This document shows, one piece after another, positions 554 to 57,814 of a stretch of 64,000 nucleotides of DNA (within the stretch, counting starts at the first letter, position 1; each line of letters starts with the position of its first letter). The notes beneath the pieces are model-generated. The model saw nothing but the letters and a program-made list of their open reading frames with translations. It ran no database searches and had not been told where the DNA came from. This stretch comes from Pseudomonadota bacterium (GTDB lineage: Bacteria > Pseudomonadota > Gammaproteobacteria > Burkholderiales > JBFMAC01), in the NCBI GenBank assembly GCA_040756015.1, contig JBFMAC010000007.1:42685-106684 (forward strand). The letters are read 5' to 3'. Both the position numbers and the translations under genes were made by a program.

Positions 554-1567
554 ATGCGGATTTATCGAAACATACCCGAGCGCGCGGACAGGCCGGTGGC
601 GCTGACCATCGGCAATTTCGACGGCGTGCATCTCGGTCACCAGGCCATGCTGGCGCGGCTGGTGCAGGCGGCGCGCACGCGGGGTTTGCCGGCTTGTGTG
701 ATGACGTTCGAACCGCACCCGCGCGAGTTTTTCGCGCCGGATCAGGCGCCGACGCGCATTACCAGCCTGCGCGAAAAGCTGGAATTGCTGGCCGGCTGCG
801 GGGTCGATCGCGTGTATGTGTGCCGTTTCGATTATGCCTTCGCGCAGATCACGGCCGAAGCGTTCATCGACGACATCCTGCGGCGCGGATTGGATACGTG
901 CTATTTGCTGGTGGGTGATGATTTCCGCTTCGGCGCACGCCGTGCCGGCGACTTCGCCATGCTGCAAACGGTGCTGGGTAATAGGTCAGCGCAGAGAGGT
1001 GTGGGCGTGGCTGCGGCGAGCCCTCTCCCCAACCCCTCCCCCCAAGGGGGAGGGACATGCATGGTGGAAGCGATGGAGAGCATCGAAGTGAATGGCGTGC
1101 GCGTGTCCAGCACGGCGATCCGCGAGGCGCTGGTGGCGGGGAATCTGGATGGCGCCAGGATGTTGCTGGGCAGGCCGTACAGCATCAGCGGACGCGTGGT
1201 GGGCGGCGACAAGCTGGGCAAGCAGATCGGCTTCCCTACCGCCAACGTGCAGATGAAGCACAACCGCCCGCCGCTGTCTGGCATTTTCGTGGTCGAGGTG
1301 CACGGGCTGGGGGAGGTGCCGTTGCCGGGCGCGGCCAGCCTGGGTGTGCGTCCGACGGTGCATGAAAAGGGCAAGGCGGTGCTGGAAGTGCACCTGCTCG
1401 ATTTCGACCGCCGCATATACGGCAAGCACCTGCGTGTGGATTTCCTGAAGAAGCTGCGCGACGAAGAGAAATACCCGGATTTGCCCACGCTCACCGCGCA
1501 GATTATGCGCGACGTGGAAAACACCAGAAACTATTTTGTTAACCGCAAGGAACGCCAAGGACGCTAA
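554..1567 (+). CDS. ribF: Bifunctional riboflavin kinase/FAD synthetase
   Basis: IGNFDGVHLGH, TFEPHP, VSSTAIR and GFPTAN motifs; directly upstream of ileS-lspA. Confidence 0.97.
   Translation: MRIYRNIPERADRPVALTIGNFDGVHLGHQAMLARLVQAARTRGLPACVMTFEPHPREFFAPDQAPTRITSLREKLELLAGCGVDRVYVCRFDYAFAQITAEAFIDDILRRGLDTCYLLVGDDFRFGARRAGDFAMLQTVLGNRSAQRGVGVAAASPLPNPSPQGGGTCMVEAMESIEVNGVRVSSTAIREALVAGNLDGARMLLGRPYSISGRVVGGDKLGKQIGFPTANVQMKHNRPPLSGIFVVEVHGLGEVPLPGAASLGVRPTVHEKGKAVLEVHLLDFDRRIYGKHLRVDFLKKLRDEEKYPDLPTLTAQIMRDVENTRNYFVNRKERQGR
1021..1056. repeat. CCCTCTCCC-type hairpin repeat inside ribF (in frame)
   Basis: ccctctccccaacccctccccccaagggggaggg; 9-bp stem, 1034-1042 pairing with 1046-1054; related to the element at 2949-3008. 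Confidence 0.75.
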
Positions 1568-1631: not shown

Positions 1632-4511
1632 ATGGCTGACTACAAAGATACGCTGAATTTACCTGACACGCCTTTCCCGATGCGTGGCGATCTTGCCAAG
1701 CGTGAGCCGGGCATGGTGCAGGCCTGGCAGGAGAAAAAGCTCTACCAGAAAATGCGCGCGGCGGCACAGGGCCGCCCCAAGTTTATCCTGCACGACGGCC
1801 CGCCCTACGCCAACGGCGACATCCACATCGGCCATGCGGTGAACAAAATCCTCAAGGACATCATCGTCAAGAGCAAGGCGCTCGCCGGTTTCGACGCGCC
1901 CTACGTGCCGGGTTGGGATTGCCACGGCCTGCCGATCGAGCACCAGGTGGAAAAGATCCACGGCAAGAATTTGCCGCCGGCGAAATTCCGCGAACTGTGC
2001 CGTGCCTACGCGGCCGAGCAGGTCGAACGTCAGAAGAAGGATTTCGTCCGTCTCGGCGTGCTCGGCGACTGGGAGCATCCCTATCTCACCATGAATTTCC
2101 AGACCGAGGCCGACATCATCCGCGCACTCGGCAAGATTCACCAGAACGGCTATCTCTACCGGGGCGCCAAGCCGGTGAACTGGTGCATCGACTGCGGCTC
2201 GGCGCTGGCGGAAGCGGAGGTGGAGTACGAGGACAAGACCTCGCCGGCGATCGACGTGGCGTTTGAGTTTAAGAATGTAGCAGGCAATGCTTACAATGCA
2301 TTGGATAAGTTTGATTTCGTCAGTACGCAGGCGAAAAACGAGGTTCTCGGAAAAAGTGTCAGTATTGTCATCTGGACAACAACCCCATGGACACTACCCG
2401 CTAATGAGGCAGTGGCTTTACATCCCGATTTGACCTATGCATTAGTCAAGTGTTCGCAGGGTGACAAGCAACAGTATTTGGTGCTCGCTGAGCCGATGGT
2501 GGTTTCCTCCATGGCTCGTTACGGGATTGTCTCATTCGAAGTGGTGGCAACGTGTCTTGGAAGTAAGTTGGAACTTTTGAAGGTTCAACATCCTTTCTAT
2601 GAGAATCGCAAAGTAGAGATTATTTTAGGGGGGCACGTTACTACCGAGGCTGGAACTGGAGCGGTACACACCGCGCCGGCGCACGGCCTCGACGATTACC
2701 TCGTCGGCCAGAAATACGGCCTGCCGGTGGACAACCCCGTGAATGGCGACGGCAAGTTCAAGGAAGGCACACCGCTGGTGGGCGGACTCAACGTGTGGAA
2801 GGCGAACGACGTGGTCATCGCCGAGCTGGAGAAAAACGGCCGCCTGCTCAACGCGGAAAAGATTAGGCACAGCTATCCGCATTGCTGGCGCCACAAGACG
2901 CCTATCATTTTTCGCGCCACGCCGCAGTGGTTCATCGGCATGGATCGTCCCTCTCCCGGCCTTCGGCCACCCTCTCCCGCAAGCGGGAGAGGGGCTGGGG
3001 GAGAGGGTTTGCGTGATCTGGCGATGAGCGCGGTGGATGCCACGCAATTTTTCCCGTCGTGGGGGCGCGCGCGTCTGGAGGCGATGATCAGGAACCGCCC
3101 CGACTGGTGCGTGTCGCGCCAGCGCAACTGGGGCGTGCCGATGCCGTTCTTCGTACATAAGGATAGCGGCGAACTGCATCCGCGCACGCCGGAGCTGCTG
3201 GAAAAAATCGCGCAGCGCGTCGAGCAGGCCGGCATCGAAGCCTGGTTCGCGCTCGACGCGCAGGAACTGCTCGGCGCCGAAGCCGGGCATTACCGCAAGA
3301 TGAGCGATACGCTCGACGTGTGGTTCGATTCCGGCACCACCCACGCTTCGGTGCTGGCGCGGCGCGAAGAATTGCAGAAGCCCGCCGACTTATATCTGGA
3401 AGGCTCTGACCAGCATCGCGGCTGGTTCCAATCTTCGCTGCTCACCGGTTGCGCCATGGACGGGCGCGCGCCTTACGATGCGCTGCTTACTCACGGTTTC
3501 GTGGTGGACGGCAGCGGCCATAAGATGAGCAAGTCCAAAGGTAACGTGATCGCGCCGCAGAAGGTGATGGACACCTTGGGCGCCGACATCCTGCGCCTGT
3601 GGGTGGCCGCCACCGACTATTCGGGCGAGCTGACCATTTCCGACGAAATTTTGAAGCGCGTGGTGGAGAGCTATCGCCGCATCCGCAACACGCTGCGCTT
3701 TTTGCTCGCCAACCTCGCTGATTTCGACGTGCACAAAGACGCGCTGCCGCTCGAGCAGTGGCTGGAAATCGACCGCTACGCACTGGCGCTGACGCGGCGT
3801 TTGCAGGAAGAAATCACCACCCAGCACTACCAGCGCTACGAGTTCCATCTCGCGGTGCAGGCGTTGCAGACTTTCTGCTCGGAAGAGCTGGGTGGCTTCT
3901 ACCTAGATATCCTCAAGGACCGCCTCTACACCGCAGGCAAGGATTCCGCCGCGCGCCGCTCCGCGCAGAGCGCGCTGTATCACATCGCGCACAGCGTGGT
4001 GCGGCTGATGGCGCCGATGTTGTCGTTCACCGCCGAAGAGGCGTGGCAGCACCTGACCGGTAGCGCCGGCTTTGCCGACGACAGCGTGTTTCTGCATACC
4101 TGGCACAAACTACCGGTGCAGGCGGATGAAAACGAATTGATTTCGCGCTGGGGAAAGCTGCGCAGCTTCCGCGCCGACGTGCTCAAGCAGCTGGAGGAGC
4201 AGCGTGCGCTTGGCAAGATCGGTTCATCTCTCGCTGCCGAAGTGGAGATTTATGCCAGCGGCGACAGCCATCGTCTGCTGCGTGCACTGGGTGACGATTT
4301 GCGCTTTGTTCTGATCGTGTCGCGTGCCGTGTTGCATGAAGTGGCGGTGCCCACCGAGGAAAAAGTCATGGTGCTGCCGAGCGCGCATGCCAAGTGCGAG
4401 CGCTGCTGGCATTACCGCGCCGATGTCGGCAGCGATGCGCAACACCCCGCGTTGTGCGGGCGCTGCGTCAGCAATTTGTACGGTGCCGGCGAGCCGCGCC
4501 GCCATGCGTAG
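1632..4511 (+). CDS. ileS: Isoleucyl-tRNA synthetase (type 1)
   Basis: [21 protein letters not shown] and KMSKS motifs plus the C-terminal CERCW/CGRC zinc motif. Confidence 0.99.
2949..3008. repeat. Branched-hairpin repeat inserted in frame in ileS
   Basis: ccctctcccggccttcggccaccctctcccgcaagcgggagaggggctgggggagagggt; inner stem ccctctcccgc/gcgggagaggg and outer ccctctccc/gggagaggg pairing. Confidence 0.85.
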
Positions 4512-30580: not shown

Positions 30581-30696
30581 TGCAGATTTTGCTTGATTTT
30601 TTTTGGGTTTGATATTACAAAGCACGTAAAGTTATCCGTCAAACCATTTGTTTTTACTGGTTTGTTTATTGTTGACAACTTGTGGTGAGCGAGGAA

Positions 30697-31341
30697 ATGG
30701 CAAAAGAGGCAGCCAAGGCCGACAAGGCATCAAAGGATAAAACAAAGGATAATCAAGAAGCTGTGGGTGAGGGCGAGGAGGGCGCACAGCCCAAGAAAAA
30801 GAATCGCCTGAAGTTTTTGCTGCTGATCTTGGTGGTATTGTTGGCCGGGGGGGGCGGGGCGGCCTGGTATTTCATGCAGCCCAAGGGCGATGCCGGAGCG
30901 GTCGACGAGCCCCAAGCCGAGGCAAAGCCGGCCAAACCGGAAGCGCCGCCCATTTTCGTCACGCTTGAACCGTTTACCGTCAACTTGTTGAGCGACGGCG
31001 GCGATCACTATCTGCAAGTTGGCATAGATTTGAAAGTGGCGGATGAGAAGGTGCCGGAGCAGGTCAAGTTGCACATGCCGGAAATTCGCAACAGCGTGCT
31101 GCTGTTATTGTCGAGCAAGCACGTGTCGGATCTCGTCACGGTCGAGGGCAAAAACAAATTGCGCGCCGAAATCCGTCGCCAAGTGAACGAGCATTTGGGC
31201 ATAGCGCCGCCTGAGCCAGCGGCGCCGGCAGCGGATGCAGCATCCGCGCCTGCCCCGGCGGAAACCCCACCGGAAGTCGCCGCCGAAGAGCCGCAAGAAG
31301 GGGTGCTGAGCGTATTGTTAACTTCGTTCGTGATCCAGTAA
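30697..31341 (+). CDS. fliL: Flagellar basal body protein FliL
   Basis: Single TM followed by LEPFTVNL, PEIRNSV and C-terminal TSFVIQ; start may be GTG 30682. Confidence 0.93.
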   Translation: MAKEAAKADKASKDKTKDNQEAVGEGEEGAQPKKKNRLKFLLLILVVLLAGGGGAAWYFMQPKGDAGAVDEPQAEAKPAKPEAPPIFVTLEPFTVNLLSDGGDHYLQVGIDLKVADEKVPEQVKLHMPEIRNSVLLLLSSKHVSDLVTVEGKNKLRAEIRRQVNEHLGIAPPEPAAPAADAASAPAPAETPPEVAAEEPQEGVLSVLLTSFVIQ

Positions 31342-56902: not shown

Positions 56903-57814
56903 TTAGATGATTCCCTTTTCATGCAGCAAGTCGAGCGAGTCACTGACGTTTTCATGTATACCGAGCTTGCGTGCCGATAGGCCCAGCGCCAATCCCAGCA
57001 ACTGGGTGAAGTACACTATCTTTACCTTGGTCTTGATGCCGAATTCGGTCTCGGCGCGCACTTGGTGCATTTCCAGCCCGGAATGACAGGTGGGGCATTC
57101 GGTGGCGATGATTTCCGCACCACTATCTTCCGCCGCTTGCAGTAGGTTGAGTACGAGTTGGGTCGATGTGTCGGAATCGGACAGGGTGTGCGCGCCGCCG
57201 CAACAAGCGGTCTTCAGCGGGAAGTCGACGTTCTCGGCGCCTGCCGCGGCGAGCAGGTCGTCCATGAAGTGCGGCTTGTAGGAGGATTCCGAGCCGGGAC
57301 CCTGGTCTTTTTCCGGGAAAATCTGGCGCGGGCGGGTGTACATACAGCCGTAGTAGTTGGCGATTTTCACGCCGTTGAGGCTTTTGCTGATGCATTGCTT
57401 GATGCCGTCCGGGCCGACTTCCTCCATCAGCCATTCAAGCAGGTGCACGGTGCGTACGTTGCCACGGTATACCGGATCGCCTGCTTTCTTCGCCAGCCCC
57501 TGCACGGTTTGCAATGCTTCCTCGGAGGTGGCGAGTTCATACTCCGCCTTTTTCAGGTTGTGGTAGCAGCCGTTGCACGGCGCCATCACCGTGTCGTAGC
57601 CCATGGTTTCCGCAGCGATGGCGAGGTTGCGCGCCGACATATAGGTTTGCAGCATGGGATGGACGTTTTTTACTTCCATTGCACCGCAGCAATTCCAGTC
57701 CTGCAGGTTGTCCATCTCCAGGCCGAGCTTGTCGACGATGGCGCGCGTGGAGTGATCATAAGGCCCGCCCGAGCCTTCCAGCGCACAGCCGGGGTAATAT
57801 GCAACTTTAGCCAT
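56903..57814 (-). CDS. shdrB2: sHdr subunit B2
   Basis: YYPGC, WNCCG, APCNGC, YYGC, ACCGG and CPTC (CCG domains). Confidence 0.93.
   Translation of the reverse strand: MAKVAYYPGCALEGSGGPYDHSTRAIVDKLGLEMDNLQDWNCCGAMEVKNVHPMLQTYMSARNLAIAAETMGYDTVMAPCNGCYHNLKKAEYELATSEEALQTVQGLAKKAGDPVYRGNVRTVHLLEWLMEEVGPDGIKQCISKSLNGVKIANYYGCMYTRPRQIFPEKDQGPGSESSYKPHFMDDLLAAAGAENVDFPLKTACCGGAHTLSDSDTSTQLVLNLLQAAEDSGAEIIATECPTCHSGLEMHQVRAETEFGIKTKVKIVYFTQLLGLALGLSARKLGIHENVSDSLDLLHEKGII

Follow-up and report, generated by a model that had tools for sequence, protein, structure and literature searches.

A BoxC-family repeat carried in frame in the isoleucyl-tRNA synthetase gene: a probable fast-turnover passenger of a variable loop

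Introduction

How does a 60-nt nested palindrome come to lie inside the reading frame of an essential aminoacyl-tRNA synthetase gene, and is it a working part of the enzyme or a repeat that the enzyme tolerates? The question is raised by ileS in the stretch of DNA analysed here (the window: 64,000 nt, positions 42,685-106,684 of contig JBFMAC010000007.1, assembly GCA_040756015.1, forward strand). Potential intrastrand triplex (PIT) elements were reportedly described by Hoyne and Maher in 2000. BoxC has long been known as a bacterial repeat to which no function is assigned, and E. coli copies have been reported only between genes (PMC4666352); that paper cites earlier BoxC/PIT descriptions by Bergler (1992) and Bachellier (1990s). 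For E. coli MG1655 it gives the motif as "always located intergenically" (Holder et al. 2015, NAR 43:10126, PMC4666352), and no promoter, terminator or polymerase effect of such motifs was found in E. coli in vivo (PMC4666352).

Results

An in-frame palindrome in ileS and the repeat family that it matches

The host gene and the parts of the element are laid out as follows.

1632..4511, plus strand: ileS, isoleucyl-tRNA synthetase, 959 aa, intact, single-copy, host of the element (ORF, translation, precomputed Pfam PF00133, PF08264, PF06827)
2949..3008, plus strand: 60-nt branched BoxC/TM element, in frame in ileS, giving a 20-residue peptide (IleRS residues 440-459)
2949..2957, plus strand: outer C-arm CCCTCTCCC, pairing with the outer G-arm; third (G) arm of the motif when the minus strand is read
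2958..2968, plus strand: small hairpin GGCCTTCGGCC (GGCC-TTC-GGCC), spacer between the two C-arms, also in other copies
2970..2993, plus strand: core hairpin CCCTCTCCC-GCAAGC-GGGAGAGGG (loop GCAAGC at 2979-2984)
2994..2998, plus strand: spacer GCTGG, 5 nt
2999..3007, plus strand: outer G-arm GGGAGAGGG, third arm of the class II C-G-G triplex motif

The first base of the element coincides with a codon boundary of the ileS ORF, and its 20 encoded residues lie between ...QWFIGMDR and LRDLA; base 2969, between the small hairpin and the second C-arm, is an A. The original prediction of a nested palindrome in frame in ileS held for the sequence, the fold and the codon boundary, while the peptide that it gave was shifted by one residue. 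The ileS gene has one match genome-wide in a genome of 99.99% completeness, and several independent assemblies carry the same element at the same ileS site. As RNA, the element folds into a nested (branched) hairpin of -46.9 kcal/mol (z = -3.4); among 200 shuffled sequences there was no fold as good. The 9-mer arm occurs five times in the window against 0.42 expected, and all six frames across the element are without stop codons. The core hairpin with its GCAAGC loop is also found as an exact variant in ygiQ of the same genome and in many genomes of the order.

A triplex motif was defined as a pyrimidine arm, a purine arm and a second purine arm on one strand, each of ~9 nt, with loops of 1-6 nt. 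The plus strand of the ileS element satisfies the class II C-G-G layout (CCCTCTCCC at 2970-2978, a loop of 6, GGGAGAGGG at 2985-2993, a spacer of 5 and GGGAGAGGG at 2999-3007), and on the minus strand a second C-G-G reading runs via 2949-2957, its spacer lengthened by the small hairpin. The branched form is, on this reading, two overlapping putative triplex motifs on opposite strands that share one central hairpin. The base composition permits the G.G-C and A.A-T triads of such a putative triplex; the fold given above was computed with Watson-Crick pairs.

The simple form, CCCTCTCCC-loop-GGGAGAGGG-GCTGG-GGTGAGGG, agrees with the E. coli TMECO sequences (compared with Table 1 of PMC4666352), and the published TMECO pattern CCCTCTCCC..GGGAGAGGG..GGGTGAGGG is matched by the ileS element; TMECO no. 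21 likewise has GGGAGAGGG as its third arm (PMC4666352), and the E. coli nrdA-nrdB spacer gives a 25-nt match at 96% with all three arms present. Comparison of the element with Rfam returned only sub-threshold chance matches to microRNA and snoRNA models. Judged by its sequence, the ileS 60-mer is an in-frame copy of the pan-bacterial BoxC / PIT / TMECO "intrastrand triplex motif"; the earlier supposition of a family private to the lineage of the source genome had to be given up in view of this match.

Related copies in genes elsewhere

An nhmmer search with a single 65-nt element query gave 7 weak matches and is too insensitive for short degenerate repeats, so a scan for arm clusters was used instead. 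The scan found ~41 clusters in the genome against 7-9 in locally shuffled genomes, and ~37 credible copies were left after checks, which bears out the proposal of a dispersed repeat family without a gene of its own. False positives at C22:9868 (acetyl-CoA synthetase), C3:48969 (HTH protein) and C3:81721 were dropped, two copies with poor hairpins at C17:28757 (PrmC) and C11:85210 (Mu portal) were counted as doubtful, and a repeat at window positions 56649-56955 was rejected as a member of a different, AT-richer hairpin family. Of 201 genomes of the order, 83 contain perfect core hairpins; the number per genome ranges from 0 to 245, and the count for a reversed-pattern control stayed close to zero.

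At least 11 copies, the ileS copy included and amounting to about a third of those in the genome, lie in frame inside Pfam-verified genes. Pfam domains flank the in-frame copies in MutS, AlaRS, CysRS, RibF, YgiQ, HsdR (two copies), an MmeI-type methyltransferase and AddA-like and AddB-like proteins, and another in-frame copy sits in an Lpd linker. Copies thus exist elsewhere in the genome, both in frame and otherwise, as the original prediction had expected. The C-arm is read as Pro-Ser-Pro in 11 of 13 genic copies (MutS codons included; binomial p ~2e-4), and in a Gallionella MAG at least 5 of 20 sampled hairpins keep the frame of the gene around them (MutL, TilS, a DsbD-type protein, a methyltransferase and Mfd).

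An AlphaFold2 model of the IleRS places residues 437-459 in a coil, with pLDDT < 50 at 444-456, after a strand (424-436) and before a helix (460-470), and the solved IleRS structure 8wnf has a 12-residue loop at the same place. The ileS insert is accordingly modelled as a low-confidence coil in a variable loop. With the Pfam flanks, the frame bias and this coil model, the earlier idea that such copies are tolerated in frame at loops of essential enzymes, in the manner of Rickettsia palindromic elements (RPE), is upheld. BoxC copies here lie in frame in genes that include essential ones, although the motif has been described in E. coli as intergenic, and no report of translated BoxC copies was found in the literature searched.

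A second copy within the window lies in the gene ribF, in the opposite orientation.

554..1567, plus strand: ribF (FAD synthetase / riboflavin kinase), 337 aa against 308-311 aa in relatives; Pfam FAD_syn and Flavokinase flank the insert
1004..1060, plus strand: extra ~57 nt of ribF (GVAAASPLPNPSPQGGGTC), absent by protein alignment from the ribF of relatives L031, L033 and L034
1021..1054, minus strand: second BoxC/TM copy, made up of a C-arm, CAA and the hairpin CCCCTCCCCC-CAA-GGGGGAGGG, in frame in ribF as SPLPNPSPQGGG

The AlaRS site is likewise empty in relatives 82-87% identical, and there the native loop was replaced by the element, not simply extended. With both sites unoccupied in relatives, the RibF and AlaRS copies are gains. 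The orthologue alignments thereby delivered the filled and empty sites that had been foreseen, but no target duplication: no convincing target-site duplication was seen at the ileS, ribF or alaS junctions, and no clean insertion junction at the compared sites.

No enzyme that could move the family came to light in the genome. The search for a RAYT gene found none; three PF01797 (Y1) matches proved to be IS200-type TnpA (one intact, two fragments), none flanked by family arms, and a RAYT partner was rejected on both grounds. A six-frame search likewise found no DUF559 (PF04480) gene. DUF559 is present in 4 of 12 relatives' genomes, each with at least 5 TM hairpins; of the seven DUF559 genes in relatives, one lies between a TM and an inverted TM (L198/L178), another has partial flanks, and the remaining ones are flanked by other hairpins or by none. 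DUF559 as a partner is therefore absent from the genome and partly supported in relatives. As no mobilising enzyme was found, the label "mobile" is drawn solely from the comparison of filled with empty sites.

Gain, loss and replacement at the IleRS loop

In most relatives the same IleRS loop has 4-16 residues, and the element is carried there by 1 of 78 species representatives, the other 77 being without it; the protein-database sample of IleRS loops, by comparison, is biased towards sequences that share the insert. The loop was not found conserved in protein without the DNA palindrome, in that other lineages with the same peptide carry the palindrome too. Between divergent lineages with saturated synonymous sites the element DNA is 84-93% identical, and codon identity among identical residues is 82-100% within the element but 46-63% in the flanking sequence. 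For the window ileS against that of L031, all 16 of 16 codons are identical in the element (~8e-6 at the flank rate of 0.48), and the rare codons TCT and AGA in the element are conserved across genera. Orthologous ileS copies have invariant arms with variable loops and spacers, and the small hairpin stem shows one compensatory pair (GGCC..GGCC / GGCC..AGCC / GGCT..AGCC).

Both this compensatory pair and the GCAAGC loop that the copies share could point to a constraint on structure.

On a gene tree of 83 tips, at least 25 changes of element state are needed and the states are scattered; an AU test rejects monophyly of branched-form IleRS (delta lnL 720, p = 2e-10), and well-supported sister ileS genes differ in element state. 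Four ileS genes that are 92-94% identical differ by whole-element deletions, and turnover in such close series is mostly deletion. Copies decay within clades (P0004/P0005; P0016/P0066/P0063), G-arm-only remnants persist at the loop in P0106 and L077, other lineages have long non-palindromic loops (for example ...LVQEKRSHSGKPEK...), and unrelated hairpin families also occupy the same loops. At the IleRS, MutS and CysRS loops, elements have been gained more than once, partly deleted and replaced, a history unlike that of a single simple insertion.

No other copy in the genome has the subtype of the branched ileS copy (GGCCTTCGGCC hairpin with CCCTCTCCC as outer arms), and the ileS copy is closer to the ileS copies of other genomes than to the branched copies of its own. 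Given that likeness across genomes, shared descent fits better than fresh local insertion.

Discussion

The ileS element is probably a tolerated, fast-turnover passenger of the BoxC family that landed in frame in an IleRS loop, and not a functional module of the enzyme. The element, in the order C-arm, small hairpin, C-arm, loop, G-arm, spacer, G-arm, would have landed in the solvent-exposed, length-variable loop just behind the QWFxGM strand leading back out of the CP1 editing domain. On this reading it survives in the gene through pyrimidine-only and purine-only arms that cannot encode stop codons, a length that is a multiple of three, and an almost invariable frame (CCC TCT CCC = Pro-Ser-Pro, then Gly-Arg/Glu-Gly) that would give a disordered peptide rich in Pro, Ser and Gly. 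The peptide would be translated and neutral, and intact copies would be young, not selected. The family presumably spreads by copying, while deletion erodes the copies; through copying and deletion, permissive loops such as those of IleRS, MutS, CysRS, AlaRS and RibF would repeatedly gain, lose and swap elements.

We consider it unlikely that the element instead entered the IleRS loop once, long ago, in an ancestor of Gallionellaceae-like betaproteobacteria, was lost secondarily in many lineages and was kept elsewhere by nucleotide-level purifying selection on a DNA or mRNA structure (for instance a pause between CP1 and the catalytic core, a protein-binding site or a recombination signal). 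Such a history would agree with the occupation of one site in many lineages, with the 84-93% identity of the element DNA despite saturated synonymous sites, with the invariant arms, varying loops and spacers and one compensatory pair in the small hairpin, with branched ileS copies that resemble one another between genomes more than other copies in their own, and with the dominance of deletion in close series. It is at odds, however, with the AU test against one clade (p = 2e-10) and with well-supported sisters that differ in state; because copies decay within clades, as in P0004/P0005 and P0016/P0066/P0063, constraint is not general. Clear lineage-specific gains of the same family in other genes, the acceptance of unrelated hairpin families by the same loops and the want of any promoter, terminator or polymerase effect in vivo in E. 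coli (PMC4666352) weigh against it as well.

Less probable still is that the element has been long-lived at the loop and its sequence overwritten from other copies, by gene conversion or template switching between dispersed copies. The 9-nt arms are much shorter than homologous recombination usually requires, the genome holds no donor copy of the ileS branched subtype, and no conversion tract was observed directly; these points outweigh, in our estimate, the GCAAGC core hairpin identical in ileS, ygiQ and many copies elsewhere, the far stronger conservation of element DNA than of its flanks, and the G-arm-only remnants (P0106, L077) that could seed re-acquisition. Hardly any credence is left for a native, conserved Pro/Gly-rich IleRS loop that is palindromic by chance, or for an assembly artefact, since a naturally variable loop length and the long non-palindromic loops (...LVQEKRSHSGKPEK...) elsewhere stand against a fold with z = -3.4 that 0 of 200 shuffles equal, ~37 related copies against 7-9 in shuffles, a sequence match to a described repeat family, TCT and AGA codons conserved across genera, 77 of 78 species representatives without the element, and the same element in independent assemblies.

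With a tolerated BoxC passenger as the preferred reading, the coding copies bear on a family described since the 1990s, to which neither a function nor a mode of spread has been assigned, and they do so through clear pairs of filled and empty sites and through quick turnover at a few loops. Their alignable coding flanks make insertion and deletion junctions reconstructable. Recurrent PSP..GRG..GEG-type peptides in predicted metagenome proteins would find an explanation, and for annotation and phylogenetics such loops of aminoacyl-tRNA synthetases and repair proteins would be repeat-derived and should be masked.

We tentatively put forward a broader proposal, about which our doubts are somewhat stronger than our confidence: BoxC repeats may be actively colonising the coding sequence of Gallionellaceae-like betaproteobacteria, with a few loops (IleRS after CP1, MutS, CysRS, AlaRS, RibF, MutL, Mfd and TilS) as recurrent landing pads at which hairpin repeats of several families arrive, are partly deleted and give way to others on short time scales, and a DUF559 nuclease acting in trans, since lost from the genome, might move the elements. 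If true, these loops would offer the first usable material on BoxC movement and would keep supplying essential proteins with variation in loop length.

Comparison with known systems

Intragenic MITEs (ERIC, Coxiella QMITE and cyanobacterial; PMC10969869, PMC5896051) are, like the ileS family, small, non-autonomous and frame-keeping in ORFs, whereas the ileS family is without IS terminal inverted repeats, target-site duplication or a parent IS and is much shorter. REP/BIME/REPIN sequences, which RAYT (Y1) transposases mobilise (Nunvar et al. 2010, PMC2817692), share with it short, G/C-rich, multi-copy, non-autonomous palindromes, often in inverted pairs; in contrast to them, the ileS family has neither RAYT nor a GTAG/CGTC head, and REPs are extragenic by definition.

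RPEs are palindromic repeats without a gene of their own that lie in frame in many housekeeping genes (Ogata et al. 2000 Science 290:347; PMC10969869), and the resemblance to the ileS family, namely in-frame insertion in many unrelated genes, with peptide segments added at sites that fold and function allow, is one of behaviour only. RPEs measure ~100-150 bp, are known from Rickettsia and have their own conserved peptide in each family, whereas the ileS family is 24-60 nt long, G/C-rich, triplex-type, pan-bacterial and in rapid turnover; membership among the RPEs is very unlikely from the 60-nt length and the BoxC identity, and the family is set apart from RPE families by description.

The closest likeness is to BoxC/PIT/TMECO, which has the same three 9-nt blocks (CCCTCTCCC / GGGAGAGGG / GGG[T/A]GAGGG) with short loops and a near-identical sequence, and which is also multi-copy and dispersed, with inverted pairs, no transposase and unstable, deletion-prone loci. 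Compared with E. coli BoxC, the ileS copy differs in lying in frame in a gene and in being a symmetric double motif whose spacer holds an additional small hairpin.

A nested palindrome read in frame within ileS

The 60-nt nested palindrome that the original prediction placed in the IleRS gene was borne out by its sequence, its codon boundary and its fold against shuffles. The element, at 2949-3008, reads CCCTCTCCC-GGCCTTCGGCC-A-CCCTCTCCC-GCAAGC-GGGAGAGGG-GCTGG-GGGAGAGGG-T, with exact internal inverted and direct repeats; it begins at a codon boundary, is open in all six reading frames, and its encoded peptide is directly followed by LRDLAMSAV. As RNA it folds into a nested structure of -46.9 kcal/mol (z = -3.4), equalled by 0 of 200 dinucleotide shuffles, and the window has five occurrences of its 9-mer arm, where 0.42 would be expected. 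The layout, C-[small hairpin]-C-loop-G-spacer-G, in which C-arms are pyrimidine and G-arms purine blocks, is that of two C-G-G motifs, one on each strand, which overlap and share a central hairpin. The gene is single-copy in a genome with a completeness score of 99.99%.

Genes in the window that host copies
554-1567: ribF, with a copy at 1021-1054 in inverted orientation relative to that of ileS
1632-4511: ileS, isoleucyl-tRNA synthetase ORF, 959 aa

Modelling of the loop, as had been proposed, returned the insert as low-pLDDT coil. In the AlphaFold2 model of IleRS (40-sequence alignment; mean pLDDT 78, pTM 0.74), residues 437-459 form a coil, with pLDDT <50 at 444-456, between a strand (424-436) and a helix (460-470). 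In 8wnf, the nearest bacterial IleRS of solved structure, the loop here is 12 residues long. This is in keeping with an exposed, disordered loop where the chain has just come back from the CP1 editing domain.

The element is the BoxC/PIT/TM motif

A full-text literature search on the arms pointed to Holder et al. 2015 (PMC4666352), which describes 23 E. coli "TMECO" sequences, such as CCCTCTCCCTGTGGGAGAGGGCCGGGGTGAGGGC, earlier named BoxC and PIT (potential intrastrand triplex). The ileS repeat family is the same element. This link was independently confirmed by the E. coli nrdA-nrdB spacer, CCCTCACCC-TAA-CCCTCTCCC-GCAA-GGGGAGAGGG, which matches the ileS core hairpin at 96% over 25 nt. As single-stranded DNA the motif (TM) forms a stable class II triplex in vitro; it shows no in vivo footprint, no promoter or terminator activity and no link to known mobile elements, and is contained in >260 genomes (PMC4666352). 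The proposal of a lineage-specific repeat family was thus not upheld, the motif being present in E. coli and, as perfect core hairpins, in 83 of 201 genomes of this GTDB order (0-245 per genome; reversed-pattern control ~0).

Copies in this genome and candidate mobilising enzymes

Clusters, defined as a C-arm (CCYTYNYCC) and a G-arm at most 45 nt apart, numbered 41 in the whole genome (2.35 Mb, 61.5% G+C, 27 contigs) against 7-9 in locally shuffled genomes, and ~37 credible copies were left once non-hairpin matches were taken out. The commonest form is a hairpin with a short spacer and third arm (CCCTCTCCC-loop-GGGAGAGGG-GCTGG-GGTGAGGG). The branched layout of the ileS copy recurs in full in several intergenic copies: outer arm CCCTCATCC, small hairpin GGCGC-TTC-GYGCC, A, core hairpin, spacer and outer arm GGGTGAGGG. 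The palindromic repeats at 56649-56955 are a different, AT-richer hairpin family with no arms in common with BoxC/TM.

The three Y1-transposase matches in the genome are IS200-type tnpA and none is flanked by family arms, so a RAYT partner in this genome was rejected.

Y1-transposase matches (contigs of this genome)
C16:876-1286, C1:114939-115160 and C14:8837-8977: IS200-type tnpA, one intact and two fragmentary

Six-frame search of this genome found no gene for a DUF559 nuclease, a candidate partner. Among 12 relatives, the four with DUF559 have TM counts of 6, 27, 13 and 5, and the eight without have 25 (an incomplete MAG), 0, 0, 2, 0, 7, 1 and 0 (Fisher's exact p ~0.03, hand calculation). 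Of the seven DUF559 genes in relatives, one lies between a TM and an inverted TM, another is flanked in part, and the remaining five sit beside other hairpins or have none. The TM copies in this genome are orphans.

Bracketed DUF559 gene
G044:C42:~30630-31030 (Gallionella MAG, L198/L178): TM (C-G-G) upstream, inverted TM (C-C-G) at the 3' end

The downstream TM of this gene is itself in frame, as the protein segment ...TPSPQPLSHEGRG...

In-frame copies and their empty sites

Many copies lie in frame within genes, flanked on both sides by Pfam domains. The tolerance of such inserts in essential enzymes, as originally predicted, is supported by these hosts; two further candidates, PrmC and a Mu portal protein, are in doubt.

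Pfam-verified hosts of in-frame TM copies
MutS
AlaRS
CysRS
RibF
YgiQ-type radical-SAM protein
Type I HsdR, two copies
MmeI-type methyltransferase
AddA-like and AddB-like helicase-nuclease subunits, copies in both
Dihydrolipoamide dehydrogenase, in the lipoyl linker

The C-arm is read as Pro-Ser-Pro in 11 of 13 genic copies, against an expectation of one third (binomial p ~2e-4). This frame bias argues that the inserts would be translated, with selection on the peptide acting as a filter. An AddA/UvrD-like ORF (contig C1:237645-241079 of this genome) carries, beside its scored copy PSPFAGEG, two further TM-like peptides, LASPASGGGGEGAAEP and SPTSSPAGAGGVRESAGEGEVE, which may be degraded copies overlooked by the arm scan. 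The Gallionella MAG with the bracketed DUF559 gene has in-frame copies too: of 20 perfect hairpins sampled there, at least 5 are read in frame, in MutL, Mfd, TilS, a class-28 methyltransferase and a DsbD-type protein.

The ~57-nt RibF insert (GVAAASPLPNPSPQGGGTC, 1004-1060) is missing from three relatives' RibF, and the protein is 337 aa here against 308-311 aa elsewhere; a four-residue insertion, GNRS (~977-988), lies just upstream. AlaRS has PSPSGRGAEGVA here, coded by CCCCTCGCCC-TCC-GGGAGAGGG-GCT-GAGGGC, versus a six-residue loop (DKAGVK, AKQNSK) in relatives 82-87% identical. Both copies are gains in this lineage. At the MutS site a TM is present in two relatives, and three have an empty site. 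At the CysRS site, five relatives (L179, L181-L184, from G041-G044 and G047) carry peptides that belong to other families of hairpin repeats (VRPEPVEGE, VGLKSDLL and SHHPLPITHH), and the stretches coding for the first two fold as hairpins. That the same few loops take different repeat families suggests filtering for permissive sites rather than TM-specific targeting.

Turnover at the IleRS loop

The proposed alignment of IleRS orthologues showed both filled and empty sites across lineages. Among 30 genomes of the order, the GM-to-LR loop usually has 5-10 residues, with unrelated expansions in three other genera. A protein-database search, biased because the insert was part of its search words, yielded dozens of IleRS ~70% identical, from entries annotated Gallionellaceae, Nitrosomonadales, Thiobacillus and Ferriphaselus, whose loops at this site are of the insert type and branched, simple or double in form; among 78 species representatives picked irrespective of the insert, only the closest relative, a Gallionellaceae MAG, carries it. 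Different palindrome-derived peptides occupy the same loop in P0029, P0033, P0060, P0096, L059 and others, including KSPPAPLLQSGE...PLYQRGARGDL and SSFI(P/L)HPSS. Short loops in L077, P0106, P0058 and P0081 (such as DVKGEGGRVKGET) consist of G-arm-like runs (GGGTGAAGGG...) only, without a C-arm, and may be remnants after loss of the hairpin half. Gallionella species have a non-palindromic 32-aa loop, which may be a decayed composite, since its middle, LVQEKRSH, resembles LIQAVRH, the spacer of inverted TM pairs.

On an IleRS tree of 83 sequences with the loop masked, element states require at least 25 changes, and strongly supported sisters ~0.1 substitutions per site apart have unlike states. 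A single clade of branched-form genes was rejected by the AU test (delta lnL 720, p = 2e-10), though within-gene recombination may affect inference from this gene tree. The IleRS of this genome reaches no more than 72-74% identity with its relatives, and its branch is long and poorly placed; the AlaRS and CysRS of the genome are 84-87% identical to Gallionellaceae MAGs. Four ileS genes 92-94% identical form a series of states.

Element states in the close ileS series
State 1: TM, spacer and inverted TM with small hairpin (composite)
State 2: second element alone
State 3: first element and right end of the second
State 4: G-arms only

Elements at this loop are thus repeatedly gained, cut down by partial deletion and replaced.

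Four orthologous ileS copies have a nearly unchanged palindrome in DNA: identical residues use identical codons at 82-100% within the element versus 46-63% in the flanks, the rare codons TCT and AGA are kept, and what differs is loop and spacer sequence, plus one compensatory pair in the small hairpin. Decay of copies is visible elsewhere (P0004/P0005; P0016/P0066), and constraint is therefore not general. Intact copies are most simply young. Against this reading, no other copy of the branched ileS subtype exists in this genome, and it is the ileS copies of other genomes that this copy resembles; some vertical persistence with structural maintenance may therefore have occurred.

Comparison with known systems

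The likening to Rickettsia palindromic elements describes the behaviour well by analogy; membership in that family is very unlikely, the sequence being that of BoxC/PIT/TM. In E. coli, TM loci show unusually frequent deletion or mutation between strains (PMC4666352), and the close ileS series behaves in the same deletion-prone way. The MG1655 copies, however, are "always located intergenically" (PMC4666352), whereas many here lie in frame within genes; intragenic copies are not mentioned in that paper and none were found in a further literature search. Relative to the literature searched, colonisation of coding sequence in frame by BoxC/TM, essential genes included, with hot loops and fast turnover, appears to be new.
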